The notes under the pieces: model-generated
What the model saw: only the letters and a program-made list of their open reading frames with translations
Told to the model about the DNA's origin: nothing
Databases searched by the model: none
Position numbers and translations under genes: made by a program
Assembly (NCBI GenBank): GCA_965153455.1
Contig: OZ234493.1
Span: 32,602,213-32,666,212 of the forward strand
Length of the DNA stretch: 64,000 nucleotides
Reading direction: 5' to 3'
Source of the DNA: Sphagnum compactum
Taxonomy: Eukaryota
Shown: one piece after another, positions 9,946 to 33,270 of the stretch
How the letters are laid out: each line of letters opens with the position of its first letter
How positions within the stretch are numbered: the stretch's first letter is position 1

Positions 9946-12900
9946 TTGAAGTTCTTAAGTTGTGAGCTATTTTTTCCCCGGCTGAGCAAAACTCTTTTGG
10001 CAAAACCATAGACTGACAAACAGGCAACAAGCAAAGGTGGATGTAACATTTAGCTGGCAGTTCTCTGCATTAGAAGACCAGTTTTTGATATGTTACCAAT
10101 GGGCTTTGTTCCACATTCTTGTTCCTTTGCTTGCGTGGTTTGCATGCTTGGCATGTAATGGTTGCCTCCTTGAAGATGATGGCAGGAAAGGGTCCTTCAC
10201 ATGAGAAGTGCACCTTTTCTCGCATGTGTACTTACACTAGTTATACATATGCACTGACACTGTTAGGCCAATCTTGTACATCTCAGAAACATCAAATGAT
10301 CATTGGGTTGATACTCAACGGTTCTCAAGTTTTGGATCTTCTCTAGCTCTCCTTCGTTTTTTATTATCCATTATACCTTCTTTCTATATACTTTGGGTTT
10401 TTTTGTTTCCAAAATCAAATCCAGGCAGATTCAGAGGATTGGTGGGTTTAGGGTTTATGAAACTGGACTGTAAACCCTAGACTATTGAAACTGTTTTTGT
10501 GGTGGACTGTAGTGTTGAAATATTGTGTTTAAATCTAACATTTTTTGGGCTTAAAAATATGGAACACACTTGAAGGTACCAACGTGGGTGCTTGTTCACC
10601 ATGGCCTTGAATTTGAACACCACTCAAAATCTCTTTTGGAATTTTCATGGAACTACCATTGGTATGAGTTTAATGACTTAAATTTCATGGTCCATAAGCC
10701 CCCAACTCTAGGGTAAAGAGGGCCTTAGTTGCCCAATTATAATCTCCAGTTAAAGTGGTTGCAGCATTCAAATAAACTCTCATTTTATATTGTCCCATTT
10801 TTCATATTTATTAGTCAAGATTTAGAAACAAGTAACACACTTTATGTGATAAACATTGCTAGAAGCCAAATTAGGGGGCATGGGTGGAATTGCTTGGAGT
10901 GTAGCTATAGGTTACAAGCCGTGAGTTTAAGGGGCCAAAGATAAGCTTATGGATTAACATTATTTCATCTATCATCATCCATTACATTCATCAAAAAGAT
11001 TCATCCATTCATCTTGTTGATCTCTCACTATTTGATCATGTATACATCTTACTAATGACTAAAAGGATAACACTACAAATTGATTCAAAGCTTTTTGGAA
11101 AACAATTCCACAAGGGGACTTGTCGATTATCACATGGAGCCTTGAACCATTGTTGGGTAATTGATATAATGGAATAAAAAAAAGGACTATGAAATCCTAT
11201 TGGAGAAATGGTAATCTACTTTGGTTGGTGGATTACCAAGTCCCACCATCTAGTGTTTGCTATAAATCTCTCAAAACCTCTCACACACTACCCAATTCAA
11301 AGTAAGGAATGAAAGTAAACAAAGCCAAGTGGGGTCATTTGCATTCTCTAGATTATACAATACCACCAACAAGAGAACCATGTAATCAAGACAACTATAG
11401 CCTTTTACTATTTGGAAATCTAACATACTACCTCTAGGGATGAAACAATTAGTGTCACATACCTTTACAACAATTGCACCCATGCCCTATGGCTACAACC
11501 GTGTACCTAATATTGTACTAAATAATTCTACACAATTTTCTTTAATTCTTCTTTCAATCACCACTAAAATAAACAAAGAAAACACACATACAAAGATATT
11601 CCACACACAATCTTCCTCTTGATTATGATTTTCCACCAATGTACAAAACTAAAACACAATGGGTGAAAAAGCAAGATACATTCCCTTTCACTTTAAACCA
11701 TGCGCTCCCCTTCTTCCCTTTCACAATTGTGACAACAATTCTATTCAAATCTTAGTTAAACTAGTTAGCATCGCCTCCTACATTAGTGGAGGTAGTAGAT
11801 CTCACCTACTGTTGGTAGTTTTGTAATTAATAGGATGCCCCCCATACAATTTTAAATACGGACTAACCTTTAGTCCTTTTGAAGTGGAAACCTATGTTAA
11901 TTATAAAAGATATGGTTGGAGTACAAAAAGAAATTAGTAGTTAAAAACATTTATATAAATGATTTCATCCAACATAGTTTTGTCATAAGAAATACCCATC
12001 ACATGTTAATAGTCAAGCCCATATTTTATCTTATTAGAACAAATGATGAACCTTATTTTAACTTGATGTTGATTTGTGGACGAAGATATCAACCTTTGGA
12101 TCAAATACATCCTTTTGGCAAAGATGAAATGCAAATGCTTGCATGGGACATATTTTCCCTTCTTTCCAATAAAAGATCATAGAGACAAAATCAAAAAAAA
12201 TGAAAACAAAGTAACATCCCACTATGACATCATAAACATTGCCATGTAGCATGATATTGATAGTTGAAATTATGTACACACATCCAATCCCAAGTGGAGG
12301 GACATCAATGTGATGCAAAATTAATGCCTCCAATAGGTTTGCTAACTTTCATACCATGAAATTCACCTAGTTCAGTATGTCAAACTAACTTCCCATCTCA
12401 TTTTGATAAGACTTGCCTTATTGATGTGGAGGTAATGATCATCACCTTTGATAAATGCCATGCTCCCGAGGTGTTATTTAAATGGGAATGAATGTCTTGG
12501 TAGATGAAGACTCGATTATTCAACATTCACAATTTCACTAGTCACGAGATTTGTGCACAACGTCACCAACCATATAAAGGGCAATGATGGATGTTTAAAG
12601 ATAGATGCTCACATTCAACCTTCCACACACCTATGGATATCATCTACATAGAACCAAAAGTTATGATGTTGGGATTCCACATGAACTTTAGGTCAAAATA
12701 AACCTAAGTATCTTGGGGTTGGAGTTTCATGCATTCCCTTTGCAATAAATGCCTTTCGTTTATTCCTAGAAAGTACACAAATTGTAGTACACTTCACCCT
12801 AGATCTTGGTTTTGTTAGTTCAATATGCCACCTTATTTGAATGCAATATGTTTCCCCAACCTCTTGGGATCTAAATGGAACTCCCTTGATGTTAGACATC

Positions 12901-13522
12901 TGTCGTGCACTATGGTATCAACATCCAATGTTATCAAAACTAAACAAAAATCAATGCCATACACATGAAAACATGTACACAAATTTTAAAAACTCACCTA
13001 CAAATTGCAGGAATCCAAGTTCAAAACAACAACAAAAACTTTAAAGCGACACTGTGGGGATAAACCCCCCAAATACACAAAAAATGGAACCTCATTTATA
13101 CTACACATGGTTCAAACCACACATGGCAAACTACATAAACTAATTTTTTTACAATAAATACTTAACAACTATCATGGACTACTAGATTAGCACCCAACTT
13201 TGTTGAAACTTACAAAACCACACACATGAAAACATGCACACAAATCCCCCCTCCTTAGCTAGGGTAAAAGGTCCTCCTACACCATATAATTAAATCTACG
13301 ATAAAATAAAACATGATATGATAAAGTAATTCATGAAAAGAATTTGGCCCCTAATGCTATGTGATCAATAAACCAGGTGCAATGTGAGCCCCATCATTAA
13401 TCGCACAGTCACAATCCCTCTTATTAAACCAAATTCCAACCTTTTTAAAATCACCCATTGTCCCAATCAAGAACATGCCTATGTCTTGATATGAAGGCTT
13501 AACATGAAACAACAAAACATGT

Positions 13523-13666
13523 TTATTTGGTGCATTATGGACACACCCAATTTCCTATGGGAACCTCTAAAAGTGGTGGTGTCCAACAACCTATATGCCA
13601 TCCTCTAAAACAACGATCACAAACCAACCTAGTTGTTGCACCTTGTGATTATTTGCACAACATGCA
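13523..13666 (-). pseudogene. Decayed PHD finger at the integrase C-terminus of the older element
   Basis: Manual translation gives CMLCK*SQGATTRLVCDRCFRGWHIGCWTPPLLEVPIGNWVCP*CTK* (C4HC3 pattern with two internal stops). Confidence 0.85.
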
Positions 13667-14500
13667 TTGCAAACATGCTAGAACTATGGCCAATGATGGA
13701 TCCACTTGGCCATCCACATGCGAAAGGTGACATGGAACACAATTCCACACATGGTTTTTCCATAATCAACCATCCCGACCTTCCAACAACAAAACCCTAG
13801 AAAGTAAAACCTTTTCATACAAAGAATGACACACCCAACCATCACATTTAATGTGCTAAGTGTTGTATGTTGCAAATAAACATAATCCTTAGGTTCAAAC
13901 CTTAAAACCTTGGGTCGATATCCACATCCATGGATGGTGGCATATCATAATGTAATATTTTGATGTTATGCAATGGCCAAGTTTTCCATAGCCATCACAT
14001 GGTTCTTTTGAACAAGGCTACATATTGCTCACAAGCTTGGACCCACACATTGGGATCATCCAAATTAACCACATAGTCCACATCCCTACAAGTGGATGCC
14101 AATAATTGGGGTTCATGCCTAAAAGGCAAAAAGTAATAGGAAAATGATGCAAGGGATGTTTGCTTGCTGAATCGATATCCCATGGGCAACAATGGTAGTT
14201 ATATGTCCCAATCAATTATATGCCCCTTTTGTAATCCATATTTTTGCAAACCTTTTTTCACCATCTGTACCATTCTTTTAGCTAAACCATTCACTTTAAA
14301 ATGATCACAAAAAGTAATCCTATGGCTGTCGTGACGTGTAGTGTCGTGACATACAGTGTCGTAAGGTGTACATTCATAGGAAACTCTACTAACAAAAAGA
14401 CTAAAGCCAGTCAAAGATATAAACTAATCAACTAAAAAGAGATACATGCACACATATATATACAATGCACACGTGAGACTGAGATGAAATTCTCATGTAT

Positions 14501-14508
14501 CCCCCCCC
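14501..14508 (-). other. Polypurine-tract candidate (G8 on the - strand) just downstream of the integrase-PHD stop
   Basis: C8 run at 14501-14508, about 40 bp past the TGA at 14550 and about 175 bp from the element end. Confidence 0.55.
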
Positions 14509-14549
14509 AGACCTGAGCCGGGAAAAGCATGGCATGGTCTGAGTAGGAA

Positions 14550-15620
14550 TCAAGGTGCTGTAGGAGAACATGACGAACAGTACCAATTGCCAACGGGAAC
14601 TTGAGTGAGCTCCGGCTTGAGGCAGAAGAGATGGTATCCACCATTACAGTTGTCGCAAAGCAGCATCTGATCAGCATCGTCCGTCCTCTGACATACCTGA
14701 CATGGATAATCAAGTGGAGGAATCCAAGTCGACGTGATGATGGTAGGGTCCAAGTTTGGCAGGTGGCAAGGCGCACAATTTTTGGAATGATCCCGAATTG
14801 TGCGTCCGTCAGCTCCTTGTAGCTCCAACACACCTGAAGGCCTGATCGCCTTAATCCTCAAGATGGTGCGACCGGAAGAAGTGTCTAAAGTATCATTGGG
14901 TTGTCGCTGAAGATACACAAAATCACCAACATCAAATTGTCTCACCTTAGGTTTGTAACTGCCACCTCGTGTGTGTGCATACCGTAAGGTGTCTCGATGT
15001 TGTGCAATGGACAGGTTTTCCATGGCCATGGGCATAACCCTCCTGAATAGAGCGGCCCTTTCTGCAATGACCTTAGCCCAAATGGTTGGGGAGTCCAAGT
15101 CCACAACTTGGTCCATTTGAGCAACAATGGAAGAGGGTGGAATGGGATGTCTCCCAAAAAGTAAAAAGTAAGGGGAGAAATGAGATAAAGAGGTGTGTTT
15201 GGACATCCTGTAACCCATGGCGATGTAAGGGAGGGCCAGGTCCCAATCCTCTTTGTTCTTAGTGAGGCAAATCTTCCGAAGTCCCTTCTTGCATGTTTGA
15301 ACCATCCTTTCTGCAAGGCCATCAGCTTGGGGATGATCTCTTGAAGTCCGACGATGGTCAATGAGAGCATGGTCAAGTAGGTCTTGGAATTCTCCCCTGA
15401 ATTCTGATCCTTGATCAGTAAGGCATTCAACACAAGCCCCAAACCTACTTAGAACCTGTTGTAAGAAAGCCTGGCTAGTGCTGTGTGATGACTTGTCCGG
15501 TAGCGCAACAAGTTTGACCCACTTTGAAAAATGCTCAATCATAATCATGATGTAGACATTACCCCTGGAGGTCTGTGGTAATTCTCCAGCTAAATCACAT
15601 GACCAGCGATAGAACATGCC
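14550..15620 (-). CDS. Integrase catalytic core plus C-terminal PHD finger (3' part of the polyprotein, after a frameshift)
   Basis: DDE motifs WSCDLAG, LTDQGSEF, DGLAERMV. Also SPYFLLFGR and FDVGDFVYL. PHD CQVC...LLCDNC...YHLFC...WYCSSC at 14568-14702. Confidence 0.92.
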   Translation of the reverse strand, partial: GMFYRWSCDLAGELPQTSRGNVYIMIMIEHFSKWVKLVALPDKSSHSTSQAFLQQVLSRFGACVECLTDQGSEFRGEFQDLLDHALIDHRRTSRDHPQADGLAERMVQTCKKGLRKICLTKNKEDWDLALPYIAMGYRMSKHTSLSHFSPYFLLFGRHPIPPSSIVAQMDQVVDLDSPTIWAKVIAERAALFRRVMPMAMENLSIAQHRDTLRYAHTRGGSYKPKVRQFDVGDFVYLQRQPNDTLDTSSGRTILRIKAIRPSGVLELQGADGRTIRDHSKNCAPCHLPNLDPTIITSTWIPPLDYPCQVCQRTDDADQMLLCDNCNGGYHLFCLKPELTQVPVGNWYCSSCSPTAP

Positions 15621-18600
15621 CTCTCCAATGGTAATGAGGAGCGAGAAGGCTATAAGTACGCTTAACTCCAAAATGTCCAAGCTCCGAGTGTACTTTCTGA
15701 ATAAGACCAGGCCGTTCATGTGGTGGTGGAACCACTCTGTCGCCTTGTGGTAAGCATCGGACGAGGTGATTGTCCCTCCATGAGTAGCGTTTGGATCGCT
15801 GTTGTATGCGATCCCGCTGACTTGATGTAACTTGGGGAGGGTATTCCCCATGTTGAAGAAACCCCAGAGTGTCCAAGTCCTCCCATATATCCAGAATGGG
15901 ATGCTCAACCAGGTTACATTGCAGTAATGCAAGATAACTAGATGCCTCAGATACATGTATTGCTGGGATCTGGTCAAAATCTTGCCTGGCTTCTGAAAAA
16001 TCTTCAGAGGTAGTGAGGGGTCTTCGTGACATGGTATCCGCATTCTGATGTGTAATACCTGGTCGGTGAATAACCTTGAACTCATACTCTTGAAGTATAA
16101 GCGCCCAACGAGCTAACTTACCAGTAAGCTTATCGTTGGTCATCAACCACTTGATAGGCTGGTGGTCCGTATACAGAGTGAAATTGGTGCCATAAAGATA
16201 GGGCCTGAAATGTATGACGGCCCATACAACAGCAAGGCACTCCCCCTCGTATGAAGAGTAGTTGCTCTCAGCCTTGTTGTTGCTTCGAGATGCATAGGCG
16301 ATAACATATTCCTTGCCTTCCTCATCAAGTTGGCCCAGAATAGCTCCAATACCAAGAGCACTCCAGTCAGTGTGTAGAATGAAGACCTTGCTGAAATCAG
16401 GTCTTCTTAGAATGGGGAACTCTGAAAGCTTTTCCTTGAGTGTGTTGAAAGCTTCCTGAGCCTCTTCACTCCATGTCCAAGCAACATCCTTCTTTAACAA
16501 TGCATAGAGAGGATGAGCAATAGTACTGAAGTCTTGGACATAAATCCTGTAGTAATTACATAGTCCGATGAAGCTCCTCAAAGTGTGAACATCAGTAGGA
16601 TCGGGCATCTCCAAAATGGCTACTACTTTGGCCCAATGAGCCATAATACCATTTGGCAAAATTCTGTGTCCAAGGTAAACTACTGAGGTGACAGCAAACT
16701 CACACTTTTTAGGATGGATCTTCATATTGACTTCGTGGAGCCTCTTGAATAACTCCTCAAGATGAGCCAAGTGCTGTAGGAGTCCCTTGCTATGCACTAG
16801 GACATCATCTATGTAGCATTTCAGGAAATCTGCCCCTTCGAGAACTTGGTCCATGACTCGTTGAAAGAAGACAGGTGCATTCTTCAATCCAAAAGGCATC
16901 ACAAGCCATTCCCACAACTTATTGCTTCCATGGAATGCTGTTTTCTTGCGATCTTTTGCAACGAGCACAATCTGGTTGAAGCCTTGCCTCAGATCCACAA
17001 TTGTGAAGATGTTTGAGTCTCCAATGCTATCAAACAGTTCTTCAGGGATGGGCATGGGGTACCTGTCTTGAGGTGTAACCAGGTTCAAAGGCCTATAATC
17101 CCCGCACATCCTTTTCTCAGTCCATAATCCAGCTGAATCCTTCTTTGCTGGCATTACTGTAGCGGCTGCGAAATCAGAACTTGATGGCTGAATGAGACCA
17201 GCCTCATGGAGCTCTTTGCATCTTTCATCTACCAATTCCCATTCATGTTTGCTCAACCTATGCCTCCTTCGATAAACGGGTGTCTCATCTGTAAGGTCTA
17301 TAGAGAACTGCATGGTCTTACACCTACCTAAGTCTTTCATTGAGAATGCGAACACATTCTCATACTTAATTAGCAAGTCTGTGACCTGGTCTCTCTCCTT
17401 CTTGGTGAGCTGGTTCCCCATAACAAAAGGGTAGTTGGAAACACATGGAATGGAGTTGGAAAGTGTGTTTGAAGAACCTGATGTATTGGGTTCTCCATTA
17501 TCCAACTCCGTAGATTCGTAGAAGGTTGTAATTGTTTCTCCAGAAGCTGATGTACCTCCAGGTGTATTGGACATAACTTGAGTCAAATTACATGGTACCT
17601 CCTCCCCCCCAACACTGAGAGTGAAATGTAGAGTGTTGAAGATAGGCAAGTGTACTTGGTCGGGGTGCCATGTGGTTGCATCGTCAGAGCTGCAAGCTGA
17701 TTGAGTCAGTGTTGGTGTTGTGTACATTTGAAAGAGTACACAGGTTACCAATAACCATGTAAGGGAGTTCAGGTCCATGCTTCTCCCGAGTAGAGCGTTA
17801 CGCTCCAATCTAGTCACCTTGGTGTGACTAGTAGTGCCAGTTTGGAACCCCATAGCCCTTTCTCTTTCTTCTGGGCTTGGTTCATCCCAAGTGGCTGAAG
17901 CATGACGATACACCAAGCCTGGTCCATCTCCCTGAAAGGCGTGTGCTCCAGGGAAGGAGACAAAGGTGGGCCAAACACCTCTTGGTTTTCCTATTGTATT
18001 CGCAGGAAACCAAGGAGGTTTCTCTTGCCTTGTAACTGGTTGGCAAGAGCTCTGATCATCCAATATGTGAGAAACCTGCAGGTTGTGGTCTCTGATGGTG
18101 TATCTCAGAGCCAACTGCAGAATTGAAAGTGGTGCAAGGTTGGTCCACCAGTTGCGCAGCTGGTGCGCATAGGAACCGCATTGTGCCGCATCGAGTAGGA
18201 GTGGCTCTCCAAGGTAATGTTTGACAAGTGTGTAGTGCTCCTGGACTTTCTCCCTCTGGTCAAACTGAGAAGGGGTGTTCTCAATTACATAACCAAGCGT
18301 AGGGGAAATGGATTGAGCCCAGGTAATCAATCGTACCATGTCTGTGAAGAGACCGGATCTTGTGTCACTCAAGCCTTCTCCAAATCCAGCTGCTGAAAAT
18401 CCTTGACACTCCCAACCTGAAATGATGAGGTCCACGGGGCCAAGTAATTCCATATGCTTATTCTGAATTAATTGTATGTCAGGGGGCAAGAAAGTGAAAC
18501 TGGCCTTCCATGCGGTGGTTGTAAACTGTTGTGGAAATCTGGTTGTGAGCTCCATCATTCTCGATGCTGCCACTTGCCTTGCAATAGGATCAATGTCTAC

Positions 18601-18705
18601 GTAGAAATACCTTCGGACCACCATCCCTGACTGTAGTAGGGCTTCGAGACCTGTACCAATACCACCAAAGAGCTCTAGTAATGTAATCCCTTCCTTAGGT
18701 GGTGT
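15621..18705 (-). CDS. Pol segment: DNMT3-like C5 cytosine methyltransferase (~17745-18687), reverse transcriptase, RNase H and integrase N-terminus
   Basis: MTase motifs I LELFGGIG (upstream of the ORF-track start), II [53 protein letters not shown]...LLGRSM. RT has CGDYRPLN, DLRQGFNQ, MPFGLKNAP and YIDD (16804-16815). RNase H has LHTDWS, EGECLAV, YTDH. Integrase HH is VHSELGHFG. Confidence 0.92.
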
Positions 18706-20010
18706 CTAGGTGATTAGCTGACGGAGTAATGGCTTAATCGGTTCGCCATGGCTCTCCATGCTTTCAAAACTAGACAAAGCTTTGACCAAGGGCTTGTAGG
18801 CTACTTTGAACCTTTGTAAAACCTCTGGTCCATGTTGAATGTCAGTAGGAACCACCCTCAAGCTTTCAGTAGCTTGAGCGTAAGCTATCTCTTCTTCATC
18901 TCCCTCTATCCATTCGTGGCTAGCTTGTTGGATGTAGGAAATGGTGTGTGCTTCCTTGAGCATACAATGGTGAGCCATAGGACTATGGTTCCCATGTAAA
19001 TCAAGGGGTATGTATCCCAGGTGGTGGCCATCAGTCTCCCAATCCACTCGGTAGTACGCATGTTCGAACCAATTGTCAATTGTAAAACCTGGTGGAAACA
19101 GGGCCTCTTGCCCAATGAGCACATCGTAACTAGTGGCATTGGTGACTAAACATCTGACCTGTAGGCAAAGCTCCTGATCTGTACCTTCATTGAAATTAAG
19201 TGCAATCAAATCCGAGCTCTCCCCAAGTACCTCCTCTACGCTCCCACTAGCGGTGCGAATGTGCCACATAGATTTTCGTAGTTTGGAGTCGAGCATGCCC
19301 ATCTTCTTGGCGAATTGAACTCCAAGAATCACTGGTTGGGCACCTGTATCAAGAAGAACCACTCTGGGTGTATGTCCTCCCACCTGGATTGCTGACTTAG
19401 TATTGTCGACAATGGCAACTCCGGTGGCGATGGAAGTTCTCTCACTAGGCACCACCTTCAGAAATGAGTGAGAGACTTTGTGGAGAGAATGGCTATCCAC
19501 AACGCCTTTGCTGAGTAACAAATCCACAAGTGAGGTGTTCTTAACTCCCTTTTGATATGTGAATGTAGAATCAGAGGTAGGAAAGCTCACTAGTTTAGCC
19601 ATGCCAGAACTAGTGACTAGATTACGAACGCCATCTGCAACACGTGAACCAATCGAATGTCTCTCCAAGGTGTTGGATGGGACCTCTGTAGCATGTGGAT
19701 TAGGGGTTGGTAGAGGACCTGATGTAGTGTTCAAGGTATCCTCTAAGATTGCAATTATGTCCCTGGTGCTTAGCTTCAAATCTTGAAAACTAAACAATGG
19801 TGTATTCACAAGCTTTTGCGCCACTTCATGCATTTGAAGTTGGCATTCCATAAGCTGATCAGTGGAAAATTGTGTGTTTTCCTTATGTACATGTACTCCT
19901 GGGACATGAGAATTTGATGCCCTAACAGCTTGTGGTGTAGTAGTCTCCTCCCCCCTCGCCAACAAGGTGCCTTCTTCTTCCATGTTGAGAGGACGAAAAG
20001 ATTGTGGCAT
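18706..20010 (-). CDS. Retroviral-type aspartic protease segment of the polyprotein
   Basis: VLLDTGAQ active site, IRTASG flap and YDVLIG. Same frame as gag and pol, separated from each by a single stop codon. Confidence 0.88.
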   Translation of the reverse strand: MPQSFRPLNMEEEGTLLARGEETTTPQAVRASNSHVPGVHVHKENTQFSTDQLMECQLQMHEVAQKLVNTPLFSFQDLKLSTRDIIAILEDTLNTTSGPLPTPNPHATEVPSNTLERHSIGSRVADGVRNLVTSSGMAKLVSFPTSDSTFTYQKGVKNTSLVDLLLSKGVVDSHSLHKVSHSFLKVVPSERTSIATGVAIVDNTKSAIQVGGHTPRVVLLDTGAQPVILGVQFAKKMGMLDSKLRKSMWHIRTASGSVEEVLGESSDLIALNFNEGTDQELCLQVRCLVTNATSYDVLIGQEALFPPGFTIDNWFEHAYYRVDWETDGHHLGYIPLDLHGNHSPMAHHCMLKEAHTISYIQQASHEWIEGDEEEIAYAQATESLRVVPTDIQHGPEVLQRFKVAYKPLVKALSSFESMESHGEPIKPLLRQLIT

Positions 20011-20016
20011 GACTGC

Positions 20017-21852
20017 TCAAGCTCCTTTAGCCCTGGTAATAGGACTTGAACCAGATGCGAGTCCATCAGTTTGAATTACCTGCCTAGTGGCAGAAACTCT
20101 GGGTGCCACACTAGTTTCTTGTGCTGCGACATAGGAAGGGCAAAAAGAAGTAGCCAATTCTGGTGTGAGACTAGAATTGTGTGGAGTGGAAAGAACATAC
20201 TCCCCAACCATTGCATCGTGTGGAAGGCCATAGAACGACCTAGGAGGTCCCTCGCGTGATCCTGAACCTTGTACAGGTTGGGCATGACTAGCTGATTGGG
20301 AGGACTTGCCTTTTAGATTAGCAAGTTGGGCCCTCAATGATTCGAGTTCATTTTGTAAAGTCTGAACTTGAATTGCATGGGCTTGAAGCACCTCCCTCTT
20401 ATCAGCATTGTGCTCCTTCTTCTTAGCATTCTTGTTGGAATTACCCTTGGTGGGCAAAGCCTGAGTGGAATGCTGAGGTGCCTTGGCTTTTGGTTGAGGG
20501 ATAGTGGAAGATGCTGGCAGATTTTGCCATTGTAATCGGAGTTGCTTCCGCTCTGGGAACTTGGCAAAACAGACAGATTCATGATGTCCCTCTTTCCCAC
20601 AATAATCACAAAAGAGATCCTCGGAAGGAATGTTGCACTCACTAGCTTTGTGGGCAGGATTGCCACAGTAGTTGCAAGAAGGTAGGATGGGTGTAGCCGA
20701 GTGCACCGCTTTAGTCCTTGAAGAAGAATGTGATGATCTAGTTGGTGCAGCTGTTGTAGGTTGAGGCCTTGAACGTGATGGAGGCCTCATAGTACTGGCC
20801 TCATAGTGTGCATGAGCCAGTTCTAGCTTTTCGGAAATGTTGTACACATCCAGCAACGTGTACGAGTCTCCAAATTCTGCAAAGACTCGTTGCAAAACCT
20901 GTGCGTGGAGTGTTGGAGTACCTTCCAAAGAACGAAGATACCGATGGGCAGCTTCTAAGTCGGTGATGCTCTGGGTATCCTCTTTGAGTTTGAGAAGCCT
21001 CCTGTAAAGCATCTTGAGGGTTTCATCCTTCTGCCGAGAGAAGGTGGCGAGCTGCAGAATTTTTTCAGAACTTTTGACTGGAAATTCCAGCTCAAGAATT
21101 CGAAAGAATTCCCCCATTGGATCAACAAAAGCTGGCGCATCAATGGTGGGAGGAATGTTTGCAGTAGCAGCAATGAGTTGTTGAGGAGAGAGGTTTACCG
21201 AGGTAGGTACCGGGTCTGGATTATTCGGCACAGTCCCGTGATGTGCAATTGCAGCTTGTAATGCAGCTTGAGAGGCGGTGGCGATGGCTATGGCGTAAGC
21301 TGGATTGGGAGCTTGGGTGACACCCAAAATCCTTGCAGAATGTTGCTCGTAGACATCCAATGCCTCATAATGCACATAACGGGCCAATTGCTTAAATGCA
21401 AACGCTTCGGTGTAATTAGCACCATACTTCAGCTCCAACTCACAGACCACTGTTGAGAAAGTTGCCTTGAACTCCCTCAACGAAATAGTACCTGGCCTTC
21501 CGCTGAACTTCTCTATTCTCCCAGAGGAACTGCTGACCTCCATGGTGTATATGGGTGTTGAAGTCACAGCTTGCAACGGAGTATATGGTGATGGTGTGAA
21601 AGCAGGTGCAGTAGTAGGTGTACCCCACTGATTAACCCCTCCAAATGGGCTCTGGTGTGTTGTTGATGTAGTGTAACCCAAACCTGAATTCCTAATAGGA
21701 GTTGTACTAGATGATGATGGTGCTGTGGATGCTTGGTGATACCGTCGTGAGCATCGTGAACTCAAAGATATTGGTTCAAAGGGTTGTGTGTTACTTCGTA
21801 ACTGATACCTTGGCTCTGGATGAGTAATGCTACTTTCATCATCCGAGGACAT
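20017..21852 (-). CDS. Gag protein with two CCHC zinc knuckles
   Basis: 611-aa ORF with IEKFSG, RQKDET-type capsid-like motifs, and knuckles CNYCGNPAHKASEC and CDYCGKEGHHESVC. Confidence 0.88.
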   Translation of the reverse strand: MSSDDESSITHPEPRYQLRSNTQPFEPISLSSRCSRRYHQASTAPSSSSTTPIRNSGLGYTTSTTHQSPFGGVNQWGTPTTAPAFTPSPYTPLQAVTSTPIYTMEVSSSSGRIEKFSGRPGTISLREFKATFSTVVCELELKYGANYTEAFAFKQLARYVHYEALDVYEQHSARILGVTQAPNPAYAIAIATASQAALQAAIAHHGTVPNNPDPVPTSVNLSPQQLIAATANIPPTIDAPAFVDPMGEFFRILELEFPVKSSEKILQLATFSRQKDETLKMLYRRLLKLKEDTQSITDLEAAHRYLRSLEGTPTLHAQVLQRVFAEFGDSYTLLDVYNISEKLELAHAHYEASTMRPPSRSRPQPTTAAPTRSSHSSSRTKAVHSATPILPSCNYCGNPAHKASECNIPSEDLFCDYCGKEGHHESVCFAKFPERKQLRLQWQNLPASSTIPQPKAKAPQHSTQALPTKGNSNKNAKKKEHNADKREVLQAHAIQVQTLQNELESLRAQLANLKGKSSQSASHAQPVQGSGSREGPPRSFYGLPHDAMVGEYVLSTPHNSSLTPELATSFCPSYVAAQETSVAPRVSATRQVIQTDGLASGSSPITRAKGA

Positions 21853-22092
21853 GGTGTTGTCCCATGCCCCAAAATTTTGTACTAATATAATCCCTCAATT
21901 ACAAAATTCTAACACAATGTATGGTTTGAATCTCCCTAATTGCAGGACGATAGTATGGCAGAATGTAGCAAGATAAGCTGCAAGACACAAGACCACACAA
22001 TGCACGACCACAGTGCGAAGAACACAGGAAACAGGACTGCAGTACAGTAGTACGTAGGACGCAGGACGGCAAAGCGCAGGACGGCAATACGG

Positions 22093-22350
22093 TGATGTCA
22101 GCAGTGACGTAGGCAGGACGCAGGACGAAAACACGATGACGTCAACAGTGACGTAGGACGACAGGGCGCAGGACAGCAGTACGGTGACATCAGTAGTGAC
22201 GCGGAAGGACGGTAGTACGATGACGTCAGCAGTGACGCAGGAGGACGGCAGCACGATGACGTCAGCAGTGACGTAGGCAGGACGGCAACACGATGACGTC
22301 AGCATTGACGTAGGCAGAATGGCAACACGATGACGTCAGCAGTGACGCAG
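22093..22350. promoter_or_regulatory. Tandem array of seven as-1/ocs-like elements (TGACGTCAnnnnTGACG) in the retroelement leader
   Basis: Units at 22093, 22137, 22185, 22221, 22257, 22294 and 22331. Each has two TGACG-type half sites exactly 12 bp apart, as in CaMV as-1. Confidence 0.7.
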
Positions 22351-22416
22351 AACAGTCCGACGAACGTCGACGGAAGTCGGACGGACCAAGGTCGCAGCGA
22401 TGGTGCTGCAGCTCGC

Positions 22417-22960
22417 AACGTTGCGACGCTGCGGCGCTGCTGTGGCAGCGTGCTGCTGAAGCGATGGCGCTGCGGCGCTGCACTGCTGCTGCAGCGTAGG
22501 CGCTGCGGCGCTGTTGCTGCACTGCTGCCGCAGGGATGGCGCTGCGGCGCTGCACTGTTGCTGCAGCGCTGCACTGCTGTCGCAGGGATGGCGCTACGGC
22601 GCTGTTGCTGCGGTGCTGCACTGTTGCTGCGGCGCTGCGGCGCTGTTGCTGCGGTGCTGCACTGTTGCTACGGCGCTGCACTGTTGCTGCAGCGATGGCG
22701 CTGCGGCGCTGTTGCTGCGGCGGTGCTGCTGCGGCGGGGCTGCTGCAGCGATGGCGCTGCGGCGCTGTTGCTGCGGCGGTGCTGCTGCAGCGATGGCGCT
22801 GCGGCGCTCTTATTGCGGCGGTGTTGTTGCAAGCGCTGTTGCGGCGGCGGTGCTGCTGCAGCGATGGCGCTGCGGCGCTACGACGCTGCAGCGTTGTGGC
22901 GCTGTAGCTCGCGGCAACGGCGGAACGCAACGCCCTGCGGCGCTAGAGCTCGCTGCTGCG
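22417..22960. repeat. GC-rich degenerate repeat island (gcggcgct / gctgca / gcgatggcgct units) in the retroelement leader
   Basis: Many copies of gctgcggcgctgcactgttgctgcagcgatggc-like units, very dense in CG and CWG. Confidence 0.85.
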
Positions 22961-23107
22961 AAGTGATGGCAGGCGGCGCTACGCTGCCCTGCAGCGATGG
23001 CAAGCGGTCGGCGCCGCAATTCTTGTTTTTTTTTTTCTTTTTTTTCGACAACTTGAAGAGAGAAAAAGAATGGGAGAAAGAGAGAAGTTTTGACACCTGA
23101 TCTCTAA

Positions 23108-23612
23108 TGTCTCGACTTCGTTTGTCCCTGCTTGGTTGGTTGTAAGAAACGCAAAGCTCCCTCCAACAACACCAGTAGCAACAGTAGTAACGCGCTCCTT
23201 CCGGCAACAACAACACGAGTAGCAACAACTCAAGAATTTCAAAAGCACAAGAAATCTGTTGCTTTCAACATGAAGCAACAGGGAATATAGTTTTTCTAGA
23301 ATTGAAAATGCAAAGCAAGAAAGAAATGAAATGTATGTAGACGGTGGCCGTGCAATGGCCGCTGTGAGCATCTAGAAATCCTAGCTTATGATGGAGAAAA
23401 CTCCTAACAAAGGAATTCTAGAAAAACTAAAGGAGAAGGGCAAAGCTTGGCCCTTTTATACAGCCACCAAAGCTGAAACCCTAAATACCTAATAGCGTAC
23501 AGTCACTTATGAACGCACATTAACCCTACAAACGTACATTAGCCCTCAAAAGACATGATGGGCATGCCCGTAGCCGGCCATCATGTATGAGGCCGTGCAT
23601 ACGGGCATGACA
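23108..23612 (-). promoter_or_regulatory. 5' LTR-like module (505 bp, TGTC...GACA bounded) with TATA box and no 3' counterpart
   Basis: On the - strand it begins TGTCATG (23612), contains TATAAAAG (23460-23453) and ends GTCGAGACA (23108). Confidence 0.55.
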
Positions 23613-26339
23613 TGGTTAATTAGAGCTTGCCAACACAAATTTTGAATTTTTCTTCCAAATTTCGTGCATTAATCCATGAATACTTCTATTGGAACACTAA
23701 ATTTACTCAAGAAAAACTTCGTGCCCTAATCCATGAGTACTTTTGTTGGAACACCAAATCTACTCAAGACCTAATCTAAAAATGCATAAATGGCCCTCTC
23801 ATTATTTTTGTCTCAAATGGTGGCAATTCAATCCACTTCAAAAAATGTTCAATCATAACCAACACATAGTAGTTATGATGAACAATAAGCTTAATGGCCC
23901 AACAAAATCCGAGCTCCATTGGTATCCAAGCCCCATGATTGGTAGAGGTTGTAAATGAAGGGTGGGTGCATTAAATGAGGCATGAACCTAGTCACACACT
24001 ATGCATTGTGAACCTCCATTGAACCTCCAATTACATGCCTTTCCACTAATATTGGCCTTGAAGCAAATTGTAGGTTTGACGTATCCCAAAATGTCCCAAC
24101 TCCTATGGGTATGTCTCACACTGCTTTCTCACATTTTTGGTCATGGTACCACTTGTACATGCTCATCTTGCCATATCCTGAGAAGGTGTTGGCCTTTCCA
24201 ATGATATCTTTTGGCCTTTTGAAGAACCCAATCTTTTTCCTTGAATGTTAATCCTACATCCAATTCCCTTATTTGTAAATAGGTCAACATTTGGGCATCC
24301 CCAAAGATGTCCATAGATCTAATGTCATCAAGTTTAATTTCCAAATTCCTAGAAGTGCCTAAAGGATTCACTTGAACTTGACATGATACCTCTTAGCAAC
24401 CATTTGCCATGATGCAAATAAATGAAACAACATGCCAACCAAACACTATCTCCAAATCAATTTCCCCATGCCAACGTGCTCCAATGGTGTCCAAATCACT
24501 AGCACTTGGGTTCCTATTCAACCCATCCACATCCTTATTAACTATCATGGCCCAATGTTTGGCATCAAAATCATATTCTTGAATAATGAAAGCCCATCTT
24601 GACAACTTCCCCATGAACTAGTTAGACTCCATGAGCCACTTCAATGGCTGGTGATCTATGACCAAATGAATGGGCTACCAAACAAATAACATGTGGCCAT
24701 GGCCCACACAATTGCCAAAAAATTCCCTCACATGAACTATATTAGGCCCTTATTTGGTTGTTGGACTAGCTTGCATAAGCAACCACAACTTTTGATTTTC
24801 CTCATTAGGTTGTATGAGGACTGTTCCAAGTCCCAAAACACTCCAATTTGTCTGCAACTGGAAAAGACAACCCCTAATAGGTCACCTCAAAATGGGTGCA
24901 GAATTAAACTTAATTTTCAACTCTTAAAATTTTTGTTCTTGTGCATCCCCCCAAATGAACTTTTCATTGACCTTGGTAAACTAGTTAAAGGTTTCGGAAT
25001 CCGACTAAAACCTTTGACAAATTGTCGGTAATAGTTTGCCAACCCAAAGAATGCTCTTAACCTACTAACATCAATTGGTCTTGGAACCTTGGAAATTGCA
25101 TCCACCTTGGCCTTTCGAATTCCCAAACCTCATGGGTAAATCATGTGGCCCAAATATTCAACTTGGGATTGAAAGAACTTATATTTTCCTGGGGTTTAAA
25201 CCATGCACCCCCAAACAGTCAAACACATTTTGCAAATGATGATTATATGTGCTCCTCCATGGTGGAATTAAACACAATGATGTTCTCAATGTAGCATGTG
25301 GCAAAATCCAAACTTGCAAGCACCCGATCCATCACCTTCTGGAATTCTATAAAGGCATTCTTCAACGCAAAAGGTAAGAATTTCCATTGATGTACAAACA
25401 ATCCTTCCCATTTTGGTCAATGCCCCATAATGCAATCTTCACCTTGTCATTTTCACAAAATGGCAATTGGTGATATCCAGATCATAAATCCAAAGCGTTA
25501 AACACCTTCGTATGGCCAATTAAATAAAAAATCTCCTTTAACAATGGCATGGCATATTTTTCTGGACATGTCATGTACACTTGTTGGTACGTCTATAATA
25601 TCCACACATCTAACATTTAATATAATTGCAAAGATGTCTTTTTTGGCAGGCGTATTGTGGCTAATGCATACTCCCCTTGAAAAAGCTCCACCAACCCTAC
25701 CTCTAAAAGTTCTTTTATTCGAGCTTTAACCAAAACTAATTTCATATCATTTAATTTGTAAAATCTTTGAAAAATAAGGGTATCATCTAAGCTAATGTGT
25801 ACTTCTTGCCCCTTGAATTTACCCAGCTACTTGAGGTTGAAAGCAAAACAATGAACATAATCATGTAACAATTGTCGCATCTTGCATGCCTCACTTCCTA
25901 TTACCATGAGATCGATTTTTGGTTCCCATGTTTCTATAATTGTAGGTGCCTTGGTATTGGATGGTGACTCATCCTTAATGCTCGAGGTTGAGGCTACACC
26001 TTATAATTGCTACATGAAGCCCCCATTGCATGTGCATCTGAAAGTCCCTTCACCTTCTTCAAACAAGTCCAAAATCTTGGATGCATTCATCATGTATGTT
26101 CCTCATTCCAAACATTGAGCATTCATGGCATCCATCACCCTTTCCCTTCGTGCAACATCCCATAATTGCCAAGGGTGTTTGGCCCATGTAGGATCACTAG
26201 ATGTGACCTTGTGATCATGCCACCCCCCCTACATGAATGCACTTGTCCCAATATGAAATGTAGGATAAGGTGAAGTAGAAAAATGGTTTAGTGGATGGGT
26301 AATTTACAATCATCGTTGTTCAACCAAACCTAGGTTAAT

Positions 26340-27030
26340 GACCCAAGTGAGATAGTTCAAGTCCATGACTTGACTAAGAAATCAATATTTGATGGCCTTT
26401 GATAAACCAAAAACATATGTGGTGTTTATATGGAACCATGTAACACACTTTTGGTTTTTAGCATTGGGTTTTGCCCAACAAGAATGTTTGGAATCCCAAA
26501 ACATACTAGGACCATTATCACAAAAAAATATGAACTTGGAAAGTTCATGATTATGGGCAAGGCTCCCTATGATTGGCCCACCTTGTTGACAATGGCAAGA
26601 GGTGGTTGATCATCATGTTGCACTTGTGAGATGTGTTTTGTATTCAAAATAACATTCACAATAAGGCTTGCATGTTGTGGCACCAAATCAAATGCCCATT
26701 GCAACAACTCAAGTGGTGTTAAATTAATCTAGAACTAACATAACCAATGTGCATGTGATTTCACTAATGTAGCATCCTCCAAAATTGGTTTGCCCACCCA
26801 AGTATGAACTTGGCACCATGCCACCAAAACTTATGACCGAAAATCACATATTGGAAGAAAATTCTCCAAAAGGTAAATGAATGGTTATTCTTGAATGGTA
26901 TGTAGATGTGACAACACTTGTAATAGGTTCCAAATTTTTTTTATCACATGTCAAGTAATCCACCACATGTGTTTACATGAAAATGCCCTTGACATGGCCA
27001 TCCAACTATCACTATATTCATGGGGCCAAC
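26340..27030 (-). pseudogene. Decayed C5 cytosine methyltransferase domain of the older element
   Basis: Manual translation gives GPMNIVIVGWPCQG (26986-27027, motif IV), FIYLLEN (VI), GKPILEDATLVKSHAHWLC*F*INLTP (VIII) and FLSQVMDLNYLTW (X, ~26341-26381). Confidence 0.85.
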
Positions 27031-30000
27031 ATTATCCAAATCTTATGTTTCTTGTCATGTCCTCAAGTGGAGGTGGGACATCATTTACATCCAAATTTCC
27101 TTCTAGTAGTCCCATCCCCCAAGGTAACATGCTAGCAAATCCAGGCAATATGGTAACACCACCCACATATCCAACACCTCGTGCAAAATATTGGACTTGG
27201 AGTTGTGTGTGATGCCCATTTCCTAATTGCCACCCAAGTCTATGGGAAGTAGTTTCCTCCCAAAAGTTCAATACAAATCCCATGGGATACAACACGACAC
27301 CCCAAACCAACACATCATAAGATTAGGCATTTGTCACCACAACTTGGACTTGAGTGGTTGATTGTTTTGTTGGGTGGTTGGGGTTCAACTGCACCAAAGT
27401 ATTAGTCTTGGTAAGCCCATGGGCCTTCTTTGATGCACCCATTGATGTCTAAATCTAATATGGGCATGGTTGAAGGTTTTCATTTGTCATGCCAAGACCC
27501 ACAAATGTTGATTGGCCCAATGTCACTGGTTGGGCACTAAAATCCAATACAACCTCTTGAAGGCAAAATGTTTGCCCATGTCCATTGCTCTTGAGCTAAA
27601 AACACCTTCTTTGTTGCACACCAAAACCACTCTTGGTGTCAACAATGCCCAATCAATGGTGGGTTGTGTCGAAAGGTTGGATAACTGGCAATTGATGTTT
27701 GTCATGAAATGTCCACCTCAGAATGTATTGTTTCTTGAGGTTTTTTCTTTAAGTTAATTGTTGGGAACAACTTTGATGTCATATCTATAATCACACATGC
27801 CATTCTTCCACTTTCACATAAAATGGCCACAAGTCAAAAAATGGGAATTGGCTGTATTTTAAGGTTTGCCAAGGTGATAGCCAAAATAATGAGGTGTGGC
27901 AAATGGATGTAGCCACCCCCAACATCACCCCACACACATCCAACCTAGAAGATGAAGATCATCATTTTGTTAACTTTCTGAGAACATGCCCCATGCTTGG
28001 GGATGTGGATGTATTAGTTAACATTGTTTTAGCCAATGTGAATGATTGGGGAAGATGCACTTAACACCTAGCCTCCCCCCTTTGAGTGTCGAATCCCTTA
28101 ATGGGCCACTTTAAAAAATCATTGTATTAAACTTTTAATGCAATACTTGAACTTGGAGGACTTAGGTATTTCATTCAATTTCAATATATATGTTTAATAT
28201 CTGGAATGTTTTTTACCCTTCTTTTCAACACCATAAATTTATTTTTTGATTATGTAGTTTCAAACAACTGGTATTGACTAACTATGTTTTTATCATGAAA
28301 TTGATGATGACCATCACATTATCACATTATTGTAGAAAATGAAACATTGGAAACCATTGGGGAATAGATTAACAAATGAAGATTTGTTCAATTTCCAAAA
28401 TGCGTTCCTCTGAAAACTCAATGATAAAGAAAAAAATCATTATTGTGGTAATGAATATAATGATCTATCAACAAATGCAAAAGTACAAAATAGTTATTTT
28501 CAAGTTACTTTTTGTTAATGTGTTGTATTTTCCCCCAATTCTTTATATCTTTATTTGTGTGAATCACTCACTTTTTTCTCAAAGCATGTAAAATCATTCA
28601 TTACATTAAGAGTTTCAATTTTTTGCTGCAAATACATTAAATTTGTCATCATGTTTCAAGGTTGTGTGGAAAGGAACTCATTTTTTTCATAACAAGAAAG
28701 TTATCGTTTAATGCATCCATGTAGATTCATTGCATGCTCACTACTTATTTGCACCCATGACCTTTCTCTTGATCATAAGCTTTGAATAAGGAATTTAACC
28801 TTGTTGATTTGGTTAAAGGTAAAAACACCCTATTCAAATAATCTTCATAAAATTTTCACATGACAAGAAAAAACTTTTCTTTAAGAAAAAAAATTGTGCT
28901 AAAATGTTGACATGAAATAGATAATTATTTTTTGCAAATTTTTAATGCTTTTATAAGAACTTGTAAACATGTCCAAAAATAATAATTCTGGGTAAATTTT
29001 TCATTAAAATGTTGACACACTTCAGTTTTTGGGCAATTTTCATTCAATTTCAATAGTTATCTACAAACTTTTTGCTAAAATTCGCTAAATCTTGTTTGGA
29101 ATGATTACTAACAATTCCACATTAAAAAAATTGGACCCAAAAAAAAAAAGCACACTACTCCAAAATAACAAGCAAGTATTTTGTTTTAAACTATTATGAT
29201 TTGTATAAAAAGATAAACTTGCCATCCATCCCCCAACCAATTTTGGCTTAAGGATTGTCTAAGCATGAAACATTTGAACCCACGTAGGTTAGGAGGGCTA
29301 TGGATGAAATTATATAAAAAATGTGAATGAGATTGGACTTAAATAATAAAAATAAAAATAGAACAAAATTGATCCAAACTTGGATTATCACCATAATCGA
29401 ATAATTTGAAGTGTGACTAGGATTAACTTGGTCTAATCAAAACCCATTTGGAACCAATCCAAAAATCGACCAATATGCAATTGAAATGGATGTTTGGAAT
29501 GGTTGTGGCCTAGACAAATCTAATAGAACATGAAAAATTCAATTAAATGTAAAAAAAATTGAATTGAAATTAGTTTGAGAATAGACTGAAATTAATTAAA
29601 CGCATCATGCCATTTATATATTTATTATAAATCCTTTTATGAAATATCTAGACCCAAATGATACCATAGCTTAGAAAAAATTGAATAGATGATTTGAAAA
29701 GTTAAACAAAATTGAGCCTAAATTAGTTTGAGATCATAGACAAATTAATTAATATTATATAGTTATTATATTAAAAGTATTACACTTGGGCTTCACATTA
29801 CTAGTGATGATCAATTGATGAAAAAAATGAATTGATTTTTTGAAAATAAATTTCAAGTGAAGTATTTGAATGACATTGCATGCAACCTGAATTGAAATTC
29901 AATTTCAAATAAATTAAATCAAATTGAACAATTGGATTAAAATTCAATGGAATTGAATTCAAATTTAATTGAAGAGAAATGAGATGCAAATTGGTGGAAT

Positions 30001-30562: not shown

Positions 30563-33270
30563 TTATGAGGATGAAAATAGCTGGTTTGGGCTGCTTTGAA
30601 CATCTGAGAAGCCTGTCCTCAGAACATGGGAAGATTCATGTCGTCTATCCATTACTCCCTTAATTGAGTTTGCACACTTCAATGCAAGTTTATCTGAGTT
30701 GCACTCCAAGGCCACTGACAGGAGCTTTATCCAATTATCTGAAAGAAGATCCGATTACAGAAACGCAAATTCAGGTTTTAAACTAAACATAAGTCATGTC
30801 GGTAACAATTAAAACGATTGGTGCCATAATGCGCATTACCTTGTGTAGCCTGGATCAAGTCCTCACAAATGAAGACCAAGCTTGTTATACCATACTGCAA
30901 AAACCACCACTATTATAGCATTACTGTTTTGCATTTGCGCTATGTTCCTCAGGAATGAATCGGCCTTTGGAATACACTGGCACATTTGTTTAAGGTGGTA
31001 GACTACTCTAAGTATTTCACAGGCAATTTATGTTGTTTAACCTGATAATACCCCAATCAATGAGTGGACAAAGAGAGCAAGACAACTATTCTTGTTGTTA
31101 GTCAACTCAAATTTTGTGACTCCCTTACAAAGGATATCAAAATGCTGCTTCCCTATGTACATCTGAAGAAAAGGCTTCAAATTCTTCACACCTTGTGAGC
31201 TGCAAGTAGAAGATCAAGACCCCTCTGCTCCATGAAGTGATGGTCAACCTCACCAGTATAAAGAAAGGCAACCATTGCCTTCACCACGTTGAAGGATGCT
31301 TCGTTGAGATCCAATCTATTGGCATATGATGCTGCCGCAATCTCAAGATTCAACTTCAGGACCTGAACATAATAGTAGGAAATGCACTTAAAACCTTCAG
31401 ATATCTAGATAGTATCCCACAAGAGCCATGTGTCACTTGGGGCAACTGAATCTTAGGTGATACGAACAGAATTCTTTTCATAGTCACAAGCTCTTGTGTG
31501 CTAAATAAAATTCTATCATCACCTGCCAATAGGAGTACATGTCAAAACAGACTCTCCATGATGTAGTTGATAGAGGCAAGCAATTAAGAATCCTGCCAGT
31601 AATCCAAAGAGCAAGGCAACAACTAGATACAACTAACTCTCTGTGTCATCCTCCATTTTCAATGACATAAAGAGAGACCATTACATGAGATTGGTGACCG
31701 AGAAATATCTACCTTTGATGCCTCAGATAGGAGGAGCTTGAGGACAGTGATGTTTTTCCCCTCTGCCCAGACTTCAACCAACTCATGCTTTCCACTTTCA
31801 AAAACCTTGGCCCAATTTTGCTGGATGGTAGTAGCCATTGGCCTTGGTGAAGCTGGTTCATTCTTTCCATGGTAATGATCAATGGTTGCTCCCGCCAAAA
31901 GCTTAAGCATGCCGTCCCAATGCCGATACTCCCACCCTGCTCACACATAAGAGGGCTTAAACCATTCAAAACAGCCAGAAATGCCCAGCTATCCAAGGGA
32001 CAGTTAACTGCCTGAAAAGAAATCTAATTTGAATCATTTCAATAATCTGATTGGTATGTGCCATGTGTATCCAAATGGGAGAGGCCAATGCTAAAAGCAG
32101 TGCTTACAGTTAACTGCCTACATCAGACATCCTTTCAGCTCTCCTCAATTCCTGAGGGAGGCAGCTGAATGTGCACCAACTGACTGGTTGGATCAGCAAG
32201 TACTTTGTCTTTCATGATGCTCAAATATTGCCACCAAGATTCATCTGGAGGAAATGGCAGAGTTGTGAAGATCACCCACCCCGTAGATAGAGAGATGATT
32301 TCAACTCCAAAGCTATGAGCAGTGGAGTCTTTTGGCCAAGAGTAATTCTCCTGGTTTCCAATAGGGTCTCTCCATGTGATGACCTTTTGTCCTTGTGAGC
32401 AATTGAGATCTTCTGAGCTGATGGTGGAACTGCCGCTTTAAGGCATACATCTGCGCCATTATCAAGCAATATCCTTGTTATCTCCAAACTCCGGCTGTTC
32501 TCATACTTGTAGACTGCCCAATGCAGTGCTGTCACACCCTGCAAAACAGAACTGTCATCAATCTCTTGCCTCCCTGAGCCCCCTTCTACTCAGACCTAAC
32601 TACAGTTTGGCAATCTCCTTCAAAGGTCTTGACAAACTGTCTGCCTTCTTTTGGTTGTGCTGTCTCAACCATTGGCGGCTCTAGACTGAAGCATCTGTAC
32701 TGGATGTCAATAATTATTCTCCTTTCAAATGGTGTTGTGAATCGACAGAACAAGAGAGAGGAGAAGGGTGCAGATCCAGTAGATGCATGGCAACACAGAT
32801 GAGATAATAACATTTGTTCCAAACGTTAGCAGAATGCACGAGGTACAGCGGGGTTTCTGAGAACAGAGATATGTTCAGATTGTCGATTCTTGATCGGAAA
32901 TAGGATTCACGGATATAAGGCCAGGCTTCCTAAGTCTAGCTCAAAGAACTGAGAACTGGAGTTCAGCATTTTTCAACAACAACAGCAACAACAAAAATAG
33001 CATAGAGAGAACAAAACAAACAAACTCCAAATTCTGGACTAAGTGCTGGCTGGCAATCTAATAAGACTTTTCTCTCACCTCATCATTGTAAGCATTGACG
33101 TCGATCTTGCGGTTTTTGAGTATGACCTGCAGCGTATTGGCATTATCCTCCTCTACACAGCGGAAGAACGTGGCTTGATTGATTAGCTTCAGGCGTTGAA
33201 CGCCGGCATCATCATCGGAAAGCCCGACTGCCTGCATACTTGATGCGATCTCCTGCTGCAACCCTGCCAT
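30563..33270 (-). CDS. Ankyrin-repeat and BTB/POZ domain protein, about 6 exons
   Basis: Spliced exons give IDVNAYNDE|GVTALHWAV...ILLDNGADV...KTPLLIA (ankyrin). BTB-like segments are NITVLKLLLSEASK, FNVVKAMVAFLYTGEV, LLLAAHK|YGITSLVFICE and DNWIKLLSVALECNSDKL. The stop TAA is at 30563-30565. Confidence 0.82.

Follow-up and report, generated by a model that had tools for sequence, protein, structure and literature searches.

A Gypsy-type retrotransposon with its own DNMT3-like methyltransferase, nested in a decayed element of the same build in Sphagnum compactum

Does a retrotransposon that encodes its own DNA methyltransferase, lying within a stretch of Sphagnum compactum DNA, interrupt an older element of its own kind, and if so, what do the two together say about the age and the landing sites of such elements? 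The stretch that we analysed (the window) is 64,000 nucleotides long (NCBI GenBank assembly GCA_965153455.1, contig OZ234493.1, positions 32,602,213 to 32,666,212 of the forward strand); coordinates count from its first letter, and both elements lie on its minus strand. Taken together our comparisons suggest, with a probability that we put at about 0.92, that a copy of an integrase-bearing Gypsy-type retrotransposon inserted in the integrase part of an element that was already dead and far older, and that shares its build and belongs to a different deep lineage. The nested insertion is real, and the analysis shows the ends of the younger element, its target duplication, an empty site, collinear domains, separate lineages and a shared split-repeat layout. 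Nesting itself is ordinary; of more interest are the layout of the repeats and the PHD finger.

A younger element inside an older one

The younger element occupies 14327-23612 (9,286 bp; ends TGTCATG...CACGACA) and was delimited by its Pfam domains, by the empty site and by the ends of its sister copies, which a scan of metagenome contigs placed at 80 loci (L001-L080) with 70-94% protein identity. It is a short form, in which a repeat A1, an internal part, a polypurine tract and a repeat B1 follow one another. Its domains run in the order gag, protease, DNMT3-like methyltransferase (DNMT), reverse transcriptase (RT), RNase H (RH), integrase (IN) and PHD finger, and the old element, whose integrase-coding part holds the insertion point, has the same order. 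When the four open reading frames (ORFs) of the younger element were compared with the window by tblastn, 10 matches fell outside it, all on the minus strand within 13529-27553, and there was no match elsewhere in the 64 kb. These 10 follow the domain order on both sides of the insert, with protease at 27553-27209, DNMT, RT, RH and integrase zinc domain at 27039-24037 and integrase core at 23874-23714 on one side, and integrase at 14324-13813 and PHD finger at 13801-13529 on the other (chain E-values 1e-14, 2e-90 and 4e-48). A relaxed tblastn search gave 13 collinear pieces of 23-59% identity, with 36 in-frame stops and repeated changes of frame.

Excision of 14323-23612, that is the element and one target copy, leaves a single frame through the joint, and this rejoined frame matches the younger integrase in one local alignment (score 304) that is ungapped at the joint. 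A sequence-only reading of this DNA had proposed that removal of 14327-23612 with one copy of the target-site duplication would rejoin the host element, that the flanks form one continuous element, and that this element has its own protease, methyltransferase, RT, RNase H, integrase and PHD remnants. All of this is borne out by the restored frame, by collinear matches on both sides with an alignment that crosses the joint, and by the remnants that tblastn, Pfam and a family profile found. Its edge for the old element, at 13245, has to be moved, as the element extends to 12901. The copies of the target-site duplication lie at 14323-14326 (TGGC on the plus strand) and at 23613-23616 (TGGT).

We then placed contigs of four public runs on window positions 12500-28500: X5 (same species label), X8 (same species label, another study), X9 (organism B) and X13 (organism D). 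One contig each in X8, X9 and X13 joins 14321 directly to 23612 and skips 9,290 bases, which are the element and one 4-bp target copy. The X8 contig measures 971 nt and reaches 277 letters to one side of the joint and 694 to the other, and the empty allele reads TGGT, the form kept in the second target copy. X5 gave no contig with the empty-site joint, and its contig over the filled junction (23583-24305) shows 0 differences. Over the listed pieces of old element and flank, other letters were found at 133 of 5,969 positions in X8 (2.2%), 181 of 5,926 in X9 (3.1%) and 238 of 3,047 in X13 (7.8%). Because the contigs of X8, X9 and X13 carry the old element without the younger one, the old insertion is older than the divergence of at least three related moss lineages, and the younger one came after the separation from the lineage of X8, the nearest. 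The empty site that the sequence-only reading proposed to look for in related accessions is thus seen in three runs, and their old element without the younger one upholds its further claim of two waves of activity and an old DNMT and PHD build.

It is scarcely credible that the locus is instead an assembly artefact or a recombinant mosaic with no insertion at all. The younger element does come from a high-copy family able to confuse assemblers, and lacks the A2-B2 part that many sister copies carry, yet the contig of the independent run X5 spans the filled junction without a difference, the exact empty site recurs in three runs, and short forms like the window copy are common among the distinct sister copies (17/39), several of them with exact target duplications.

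Two lineages of one build

A database search with the younger ORF that holds DNMT, RT and RH returned 249 matches; the alignment covers the DNMT part in 58 of the 120 listed, among them proteins labelled Klebsormidium, Closterium, Chlamydomonas eustigma, Haematococcus and the liverwort Calypogeia. The old element is closer to the proteins P0010, P0020 and P0013 (898-985 bits, 41-44% identity) than to the younger element. In a tree of 41 RT-RH-IN rows (quick IQ-TREE run, with support from the Shimodaira-Hasegawa-like approximate likelihood-ratio test, SH-aLRT), the old element and a decayed copy next to the sister copy at L030 form a pair (support 99), both inside a clade with P0024, P0031, P0035 (Calypogeia) and P0115 (support 97), and the younger copy groups with P0002 (99) and then with P0006 (Calypogeia) (100). 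Forcing the groups of both elements together changed the log-likelihood by -276 units, with a p-value of 3.6e-40 in the approximately unbiased (AU) test. At least two sub-families, as the sequence-only reading held, are therefore present as separate, well-supported lineages. Each lineage contains a liverwort protein, which suggests that the build with DNMT3 and PHD is ancient and kept in land plants, and if inheritance was vertical, the lineages would have split before mosses and liverworts did.

We consider it highly improbable that the two elements are one family and differ by decay alone. The old element has 36 stops and many frameshifts, and much of the distance behind its 23-59% identity could indeed be decay, but intact database proteins of another lineage fit it better than the younger element does, the tree separates the two with support of 97-100 and the AU p-value given above, and the decayed copy at L030 is a second one of its kind, with 73% DNA identity to the old element. 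By blastn against the 80 loci the old element had four weak matches only. Moreover, contigs at least 88% alike pile up on the younger element and, unlike there, not on the old one; the summed contig depth over the younger element reaches 50-2000 times that of the flanks and is not taken as copy number.

Several points weigh against the nested pair of two lineages as we read it. The 4-bp target duplication in the window agrees in 3 of 4 letters (TGGC and TGGT), and neither the 5' end nor the own target duplication of the old element was found. The leader of the younger element has no match to the motif that we take for an initiator-tRNA-type primer-binding site, which has 6 matches in the window against 3.4 expected. 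As to the tree, the group forced in the AU test was chosen after the tree had been seen, and decayed rows have skewed composition and long branches, so that placement can mislead; the exact position of these rows is less sure than their separation from the younger clade. Finally, the contigs of other runs could in principle be paralogues, against which counts the contig depth over the old element, which is near that of the flanks.

Repeat layout, domains and decay

In the younger element, repeat A1 (element positions 1-312; 23301-23612) carries a TATA-like CTGTATAAAAGG. It is followed by a leader with GC-rich tandem repeats of 14-nt period over ~500 bp (22390-22900) and seven tandem copies of a ~37-nt unit (22065-22356), each with the palindrome TGACGTCA, presumably a bZIP/CRE-type site. 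No other part varies as much among the sister copies as this leader between A1 and gag. A gag-like ORF with CCHC knuckles (20017-21894) ends at an in-frame TGA (20019-20017), and the aspartic protease ORF (18706-20016; Pfam) at an in-frame TAG (18708-18706). The next ORF (18705-15595) holds the C5 DNA methyltransferase, RT, RNase H and integrase zinc domain, and the last (16112-14550) the integrase core and PHD finger. Within these, the DNMT3-like C5 cytosine methyltransferase domain spans 17686-18705, with motifs I, IV (ECQ, its Cys kept), VI (ENT), VIII and IX-X, and Pfam places the RT at 16660-17121, RNase H at 16084-16473, the integrase zinc domain at 15619-15729, the integrase catalytic core (rve) at 15330-15611 and the PHD finger, at the integrase C-terminus, at 14568-14702. 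A polypurine G-run (14501-14508) stands immediately before B1 (element positions 9113-9286; 14327-14500), after which, unlike in the long forms among its sisters, no A2-B2 follows.

The methyltransferase domain matches Pfam PF00145 at 6.9e-08, and 26 of its 27 matches among solved structures are DNMT3A/B/C chains, the other being deposited only as 'DNA methyltransferase'; motifs I, IV (with its Cys), VI, VIII and IX-X are conserved across 55 relatives. The PHD finger matches PF00628 at 8e-13. Terminal direct repeats of the long terminal repeat (LTR) kind, or terminal inverted repeats, were found in the younger element neither by self-blastn nor by a repeat scan, its two ends reached a local alignment score of 22 against a shuffle maximum of 26, and a hairpin just after A1 is unremarkable (z-score -1.25).

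Database relatives are continuous across both ORF boundaries, with Arg at the position of the window's TGA and Trp at that of its TAG. Among distinct sister copies the first stop site reads CGA in 28 of 43 and TGA in 6 of 43, and the second TGG in 36 of 54 and TAG in 13 of 54; that these stops recur could be due to repeated C-to-T mutation of methylated sites, to their being a marker of a sub-family, or to tolerance of read-through. The integrase has in addition lost 107 nt near 15621, a frameshifting deletion that takes away the latter half of the zinc domain. This deletion is private to the window copy (it recurs in none of 52 sister copies, of which 49 are longer here by exactly 107 letters). 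With two in-frame stops and the private deletion the younger copy is dead, either disabled after insertion or already defective and moved in trans. The sequence-only reading had called it young, which stands in that the empty site makes it younger than its host element, although it is not intact, and 'younger but dead' fits better. The observed/expected ratio of CpG is 0.39 in its coding part, 0.16-0.20 in the old element and 0.26-0.28 in the flanks.

Sister copies share the layout A1, internal part, G-run polypurine tract, B1, two variable letters, A2 and B2. After removal of 10 duplicate loci, and with L012 and L079 set by eye to long, the 39 distinct copies comprise 22 long forms and 17 short forms that end at B1 as the window copy does (including L003, L010, L030, L032, L033, L034, L038, L044, L045, L050, L061, L069 and L075); B is truncated in three of the 17. 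The family has TG..CA ends, and both ends lie within the locus in 20 copies, four of which could not be read by script. Among the 16 that could, the 4-bp duplications were exact in nine, agreed in 3 of 4 letters in five and were worse in two, although one scored as worse (L077) reads ATGT/ATGT by eye. The short forms L033, L038 and L061 carry exact duplications. The two letters between the CA of B1 and the TG of A2 vary among copies (GC, AC, GT, AA, AT), and the joint of A2 and B2 is nearly constant (..TTCAAT/ATACATG..), with small variants of length; together these would fit ends that are joined anew in each cycle. In such a cycle, reverse transcription would build terminal B-NN-A units from the polypurine tract, their ends would be joined, and the integrase would then cut at the internal CA/TG (CA-NN-TG). 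Circles with one unit would give short A..B copies like that in the window, and circles with two units long A..B-A-B copies; alternatively, short forms may arise by deletion between B1 and B2.

The old element is a long form of the younger family's layout, B1-GT-A2-B2, and has no LTRs. From its 5' side, it retains a protease remnant with 3 stops (27209-27553; tblastn), a DNMT remnant in three frames (26337-27045; GWPCQG, YLLEN; relaxed tblastn and family profile), an RT remnant (24977-25900; tblastn), an RNase H remnant (24573-24953; relaxed tblastn and Pfam) and, as far as the insertion point, the integrase zinc domain and the start of the core (23613-24102). The remaining integrase lies past the insertion point (13813-14326), followed by a PHD finger remnant with 2 stops in which all zinc ligands are readable (13532-13666; relaxed tblastn and Pfam). 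Then come a polypurine run (13256-13246) and B1 (13245-13170), together 13170-13256; the dinucleotide GT (13169-13168) and A2 (13167-12985), which starts TGTTAAG and has a TATA-like motif, together 12985-13169; and B2 (12901-12984), whose end CACGACA is the 3' end of the element. B1 and B2 align with a score of 49 against a shuffle maximum of 25, and are 80% identical (61/76 aligned pairs, with transitions making up 12 of the 15 mismatches). The old integrase also has an internal tandem duplication of 57 bp near 23640-23760, seen as a repeated stretch of 19 residues in the read-through translation.

Pfam recognises the old PHD finger (3e-07) and RNase H (1.5e-08) and gave no match for the old DNMT pieces. 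A family profile built from 55 relatives, each less than 60% identical to the younger DNMT, matched the old DNMT at 26935-26522 (E 6.8e-23), with weaker collinear matches at 26525-26337 (3e-4) and 27045-26923 (0.02), and had no match of similar strength in the rest of the window. Still readable in the old DNMT are the cysteine of motif IV (GWPCQG) and motif VI (LLEN). Upstream of 27553, relaxed tblastn for gag or leader gave chance-level matches only, and GC content drops near 28100, upstream of the protease remnant; the 5' part of the old element is missing or unrecognisable.

The landing site and known relatives

Why did the younger copy land in a dead relative? The sequence-only reading saw a fit with heterochromatin targeting, which is not shown by our data: the nest lies among host genes, namely a xanthine/uracil-type permease of several exons (~6861-9295, plus strand), an ankyrin-repeat gene (32275-32589, minus strand) and a histone H2A gene (42472-42789, minus strand), and only 5 of 92 distinct sister-copy flanks have Gypsy coding remains within 4 kb (L012, L016, the L026 group, L030 and L063). 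Under targeting, the PHD finger of the integrase would bind H3 tails without K4 methylation and steer copies into silent, methylated chromatin. The nearest solved relatives of this finger are KMT2D, WSTF, CHD4, KDM5 PHD1, ATXR5, BAZ2A/B, DPF2/3, KAT6A, UHRF1, AIRE and PHF21A, most of which read H3 tails without K4 methylation, and it occupies the place that a chromodomain has in chromoviruses. Judged from sequence, this likeness to readers of unmodified H3 is a lead only. Of the five flanks, those at L016 and L063 abut copies of their own family, and two further sister copies lie near decayed remains of the old lineage: in the L026 group an integrase-PHD piece with 11 stops (L026 14966-15565, also in L025 and L027) is 48 nt from the copy's end, and at L030 a stretch from RT to integrase with 19 stops (3-1905) is 3.2 kb from the sister copy. 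Against targeting stand, besides the low count of such flanks and the genes around the nest, a sister copy whose end lies ~270 nt away from a seemingly intact 2OG-Fe(II) oxygenase gene of the host (L044, 8604-9867; DIOX_N and 2OG-FeII_Oxy), and the fact that only 7 of 145 flank ORFs have a Pfam match and 138 have none, which leaves most flanks unclassable. The flank counts have no genome-wide null to compare with. We regard targeting as possible, though on the unlikely side.

We hold it somewhat probable that chance and survivorship placed the younger copy where it is, insertions in genes being purged and those in dead elements persisting. Nesting is a common fate of retrotransposons, the old element accounts for roughly a tenth of the window once the insert is set aside, and few sister copies are nested. 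However, the insertion is absent from X8, a run with the same species label, and hence recent, which leaves little time for purging, and this is a single case. For a single nest, targeting is no better an explanation than the persistence of insertions that do no harm.

Like KnitGypsy-Dnmt3 of Klebsormidium nitens, in which a DNMT3-type methyltransferase without introns lies within a Gypsy-type Pol (de Mendoza et al. 2018, PMC5890265) and which the legend of Fig. 4c there describes as having Gypsy domains in a DIRS-like repeat arrangement, the moss elements share the Gypsy order of protease, RT, RNase H and integrase, a DNMT3-type domain and split direct repeats, as far as the available parts of that paper allow comparison. 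A 2026 preprint (10.64898/2026.05.21.726589) terms such elements, in the portion available, streptophyte 'Gypsy-DNMT3', and the moss elements belong to this known kind. The host there is a charophyte and here a moss; in the text of PMC5890265, as available, the words PHD, chromodomain and moss have 0 occurrences each. To the extent that the same text covers these features, the moss elements differ further in the coexistence of at least two deep lineages, in short and long forms, and in a dated nested pair with its empty site. Two proteins of K. nitens, P0033 and P0076, share the RT clade of the moss elements, with no DNMT domain found in either. Our literature search found no paper on DNMT-bearing retrotransposons in Sphagnum or other bryophytes.

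Chromoviruses are Gypsy elements whose integrase carries a chromodomain at its C-terminus (PMC3350952, PMC6317226, in the parts available), and so resemble the moss elements in having a chromatin-reader module fused to the integrase end, with a proposed use in tethering integration to a chromatin state. The moss elements, however, have no chromodomain match by Pfam and carry a PHD finger (PF00628, 8e-13) where a chromodomain would be expected, which rules out a chromovirus. The available text of both papers has 0 occurrences of PHD and mentions chromodomains only, which does not bear out the notion of Chlamyvir as a PHD-bearing clade, and we do not use that name. A canonical LTR retrotransposon is ruled out by the lack of terminal direct repeats in self-blastn, alignment and repeat scan, and an element of the DIRS order, with tyrosine recombinase and no target duplication, by the rve integrase with its H2C2 domain and by the 4-bp duplications. 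The Ngaro/PAT-like tyrosine-recombinase retrotransposons have split direct repeats in the layout A1-internal-B1-A2-B2, and the moss elements resemble them in this layout but have a DDE integrase (rve), TG..CA ends and 4-bp duplications, and no tyrosine recombinase. In plant genomes nested LTR retrotransposons give a relative order of activity, the younger lying inside the older; the moss pair has no LTRs for dating, and its order comes from the empty site and from the divergence of the old B1 and B2.

At present we can offer only as a quite unlikely, though far-reaching, proposal that lineages predating the split of mosses and liverworts integrate by way of joined B-NN-A circles and not as linear LTR DNA, and that a PHD finger of the H3K4me0 type and the element's own DNMT3, both acting on chromatin, would form a read-and-write module that places and keeps copies in silent chromatin. 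If true, such a module would account for the insertion into a dead relative as well as for the persistence of the build over so long a time. The sister copies, with their exact ends, 4-bp duplications and two forms, are material for studying how an integrase-bearing element with DIRS-like repeats inserts, and bear on the question of whether a PHD finger can replace a chromodomain. The build with DNMT3 and PHD is not confined to the charophyte of the original description, and the nested pair provides a time axis for retrotransposons with their own DNA methyltransferase: one lineage was already dead when three related mosses diverged, and the other was still mobile after the latest of those splits.

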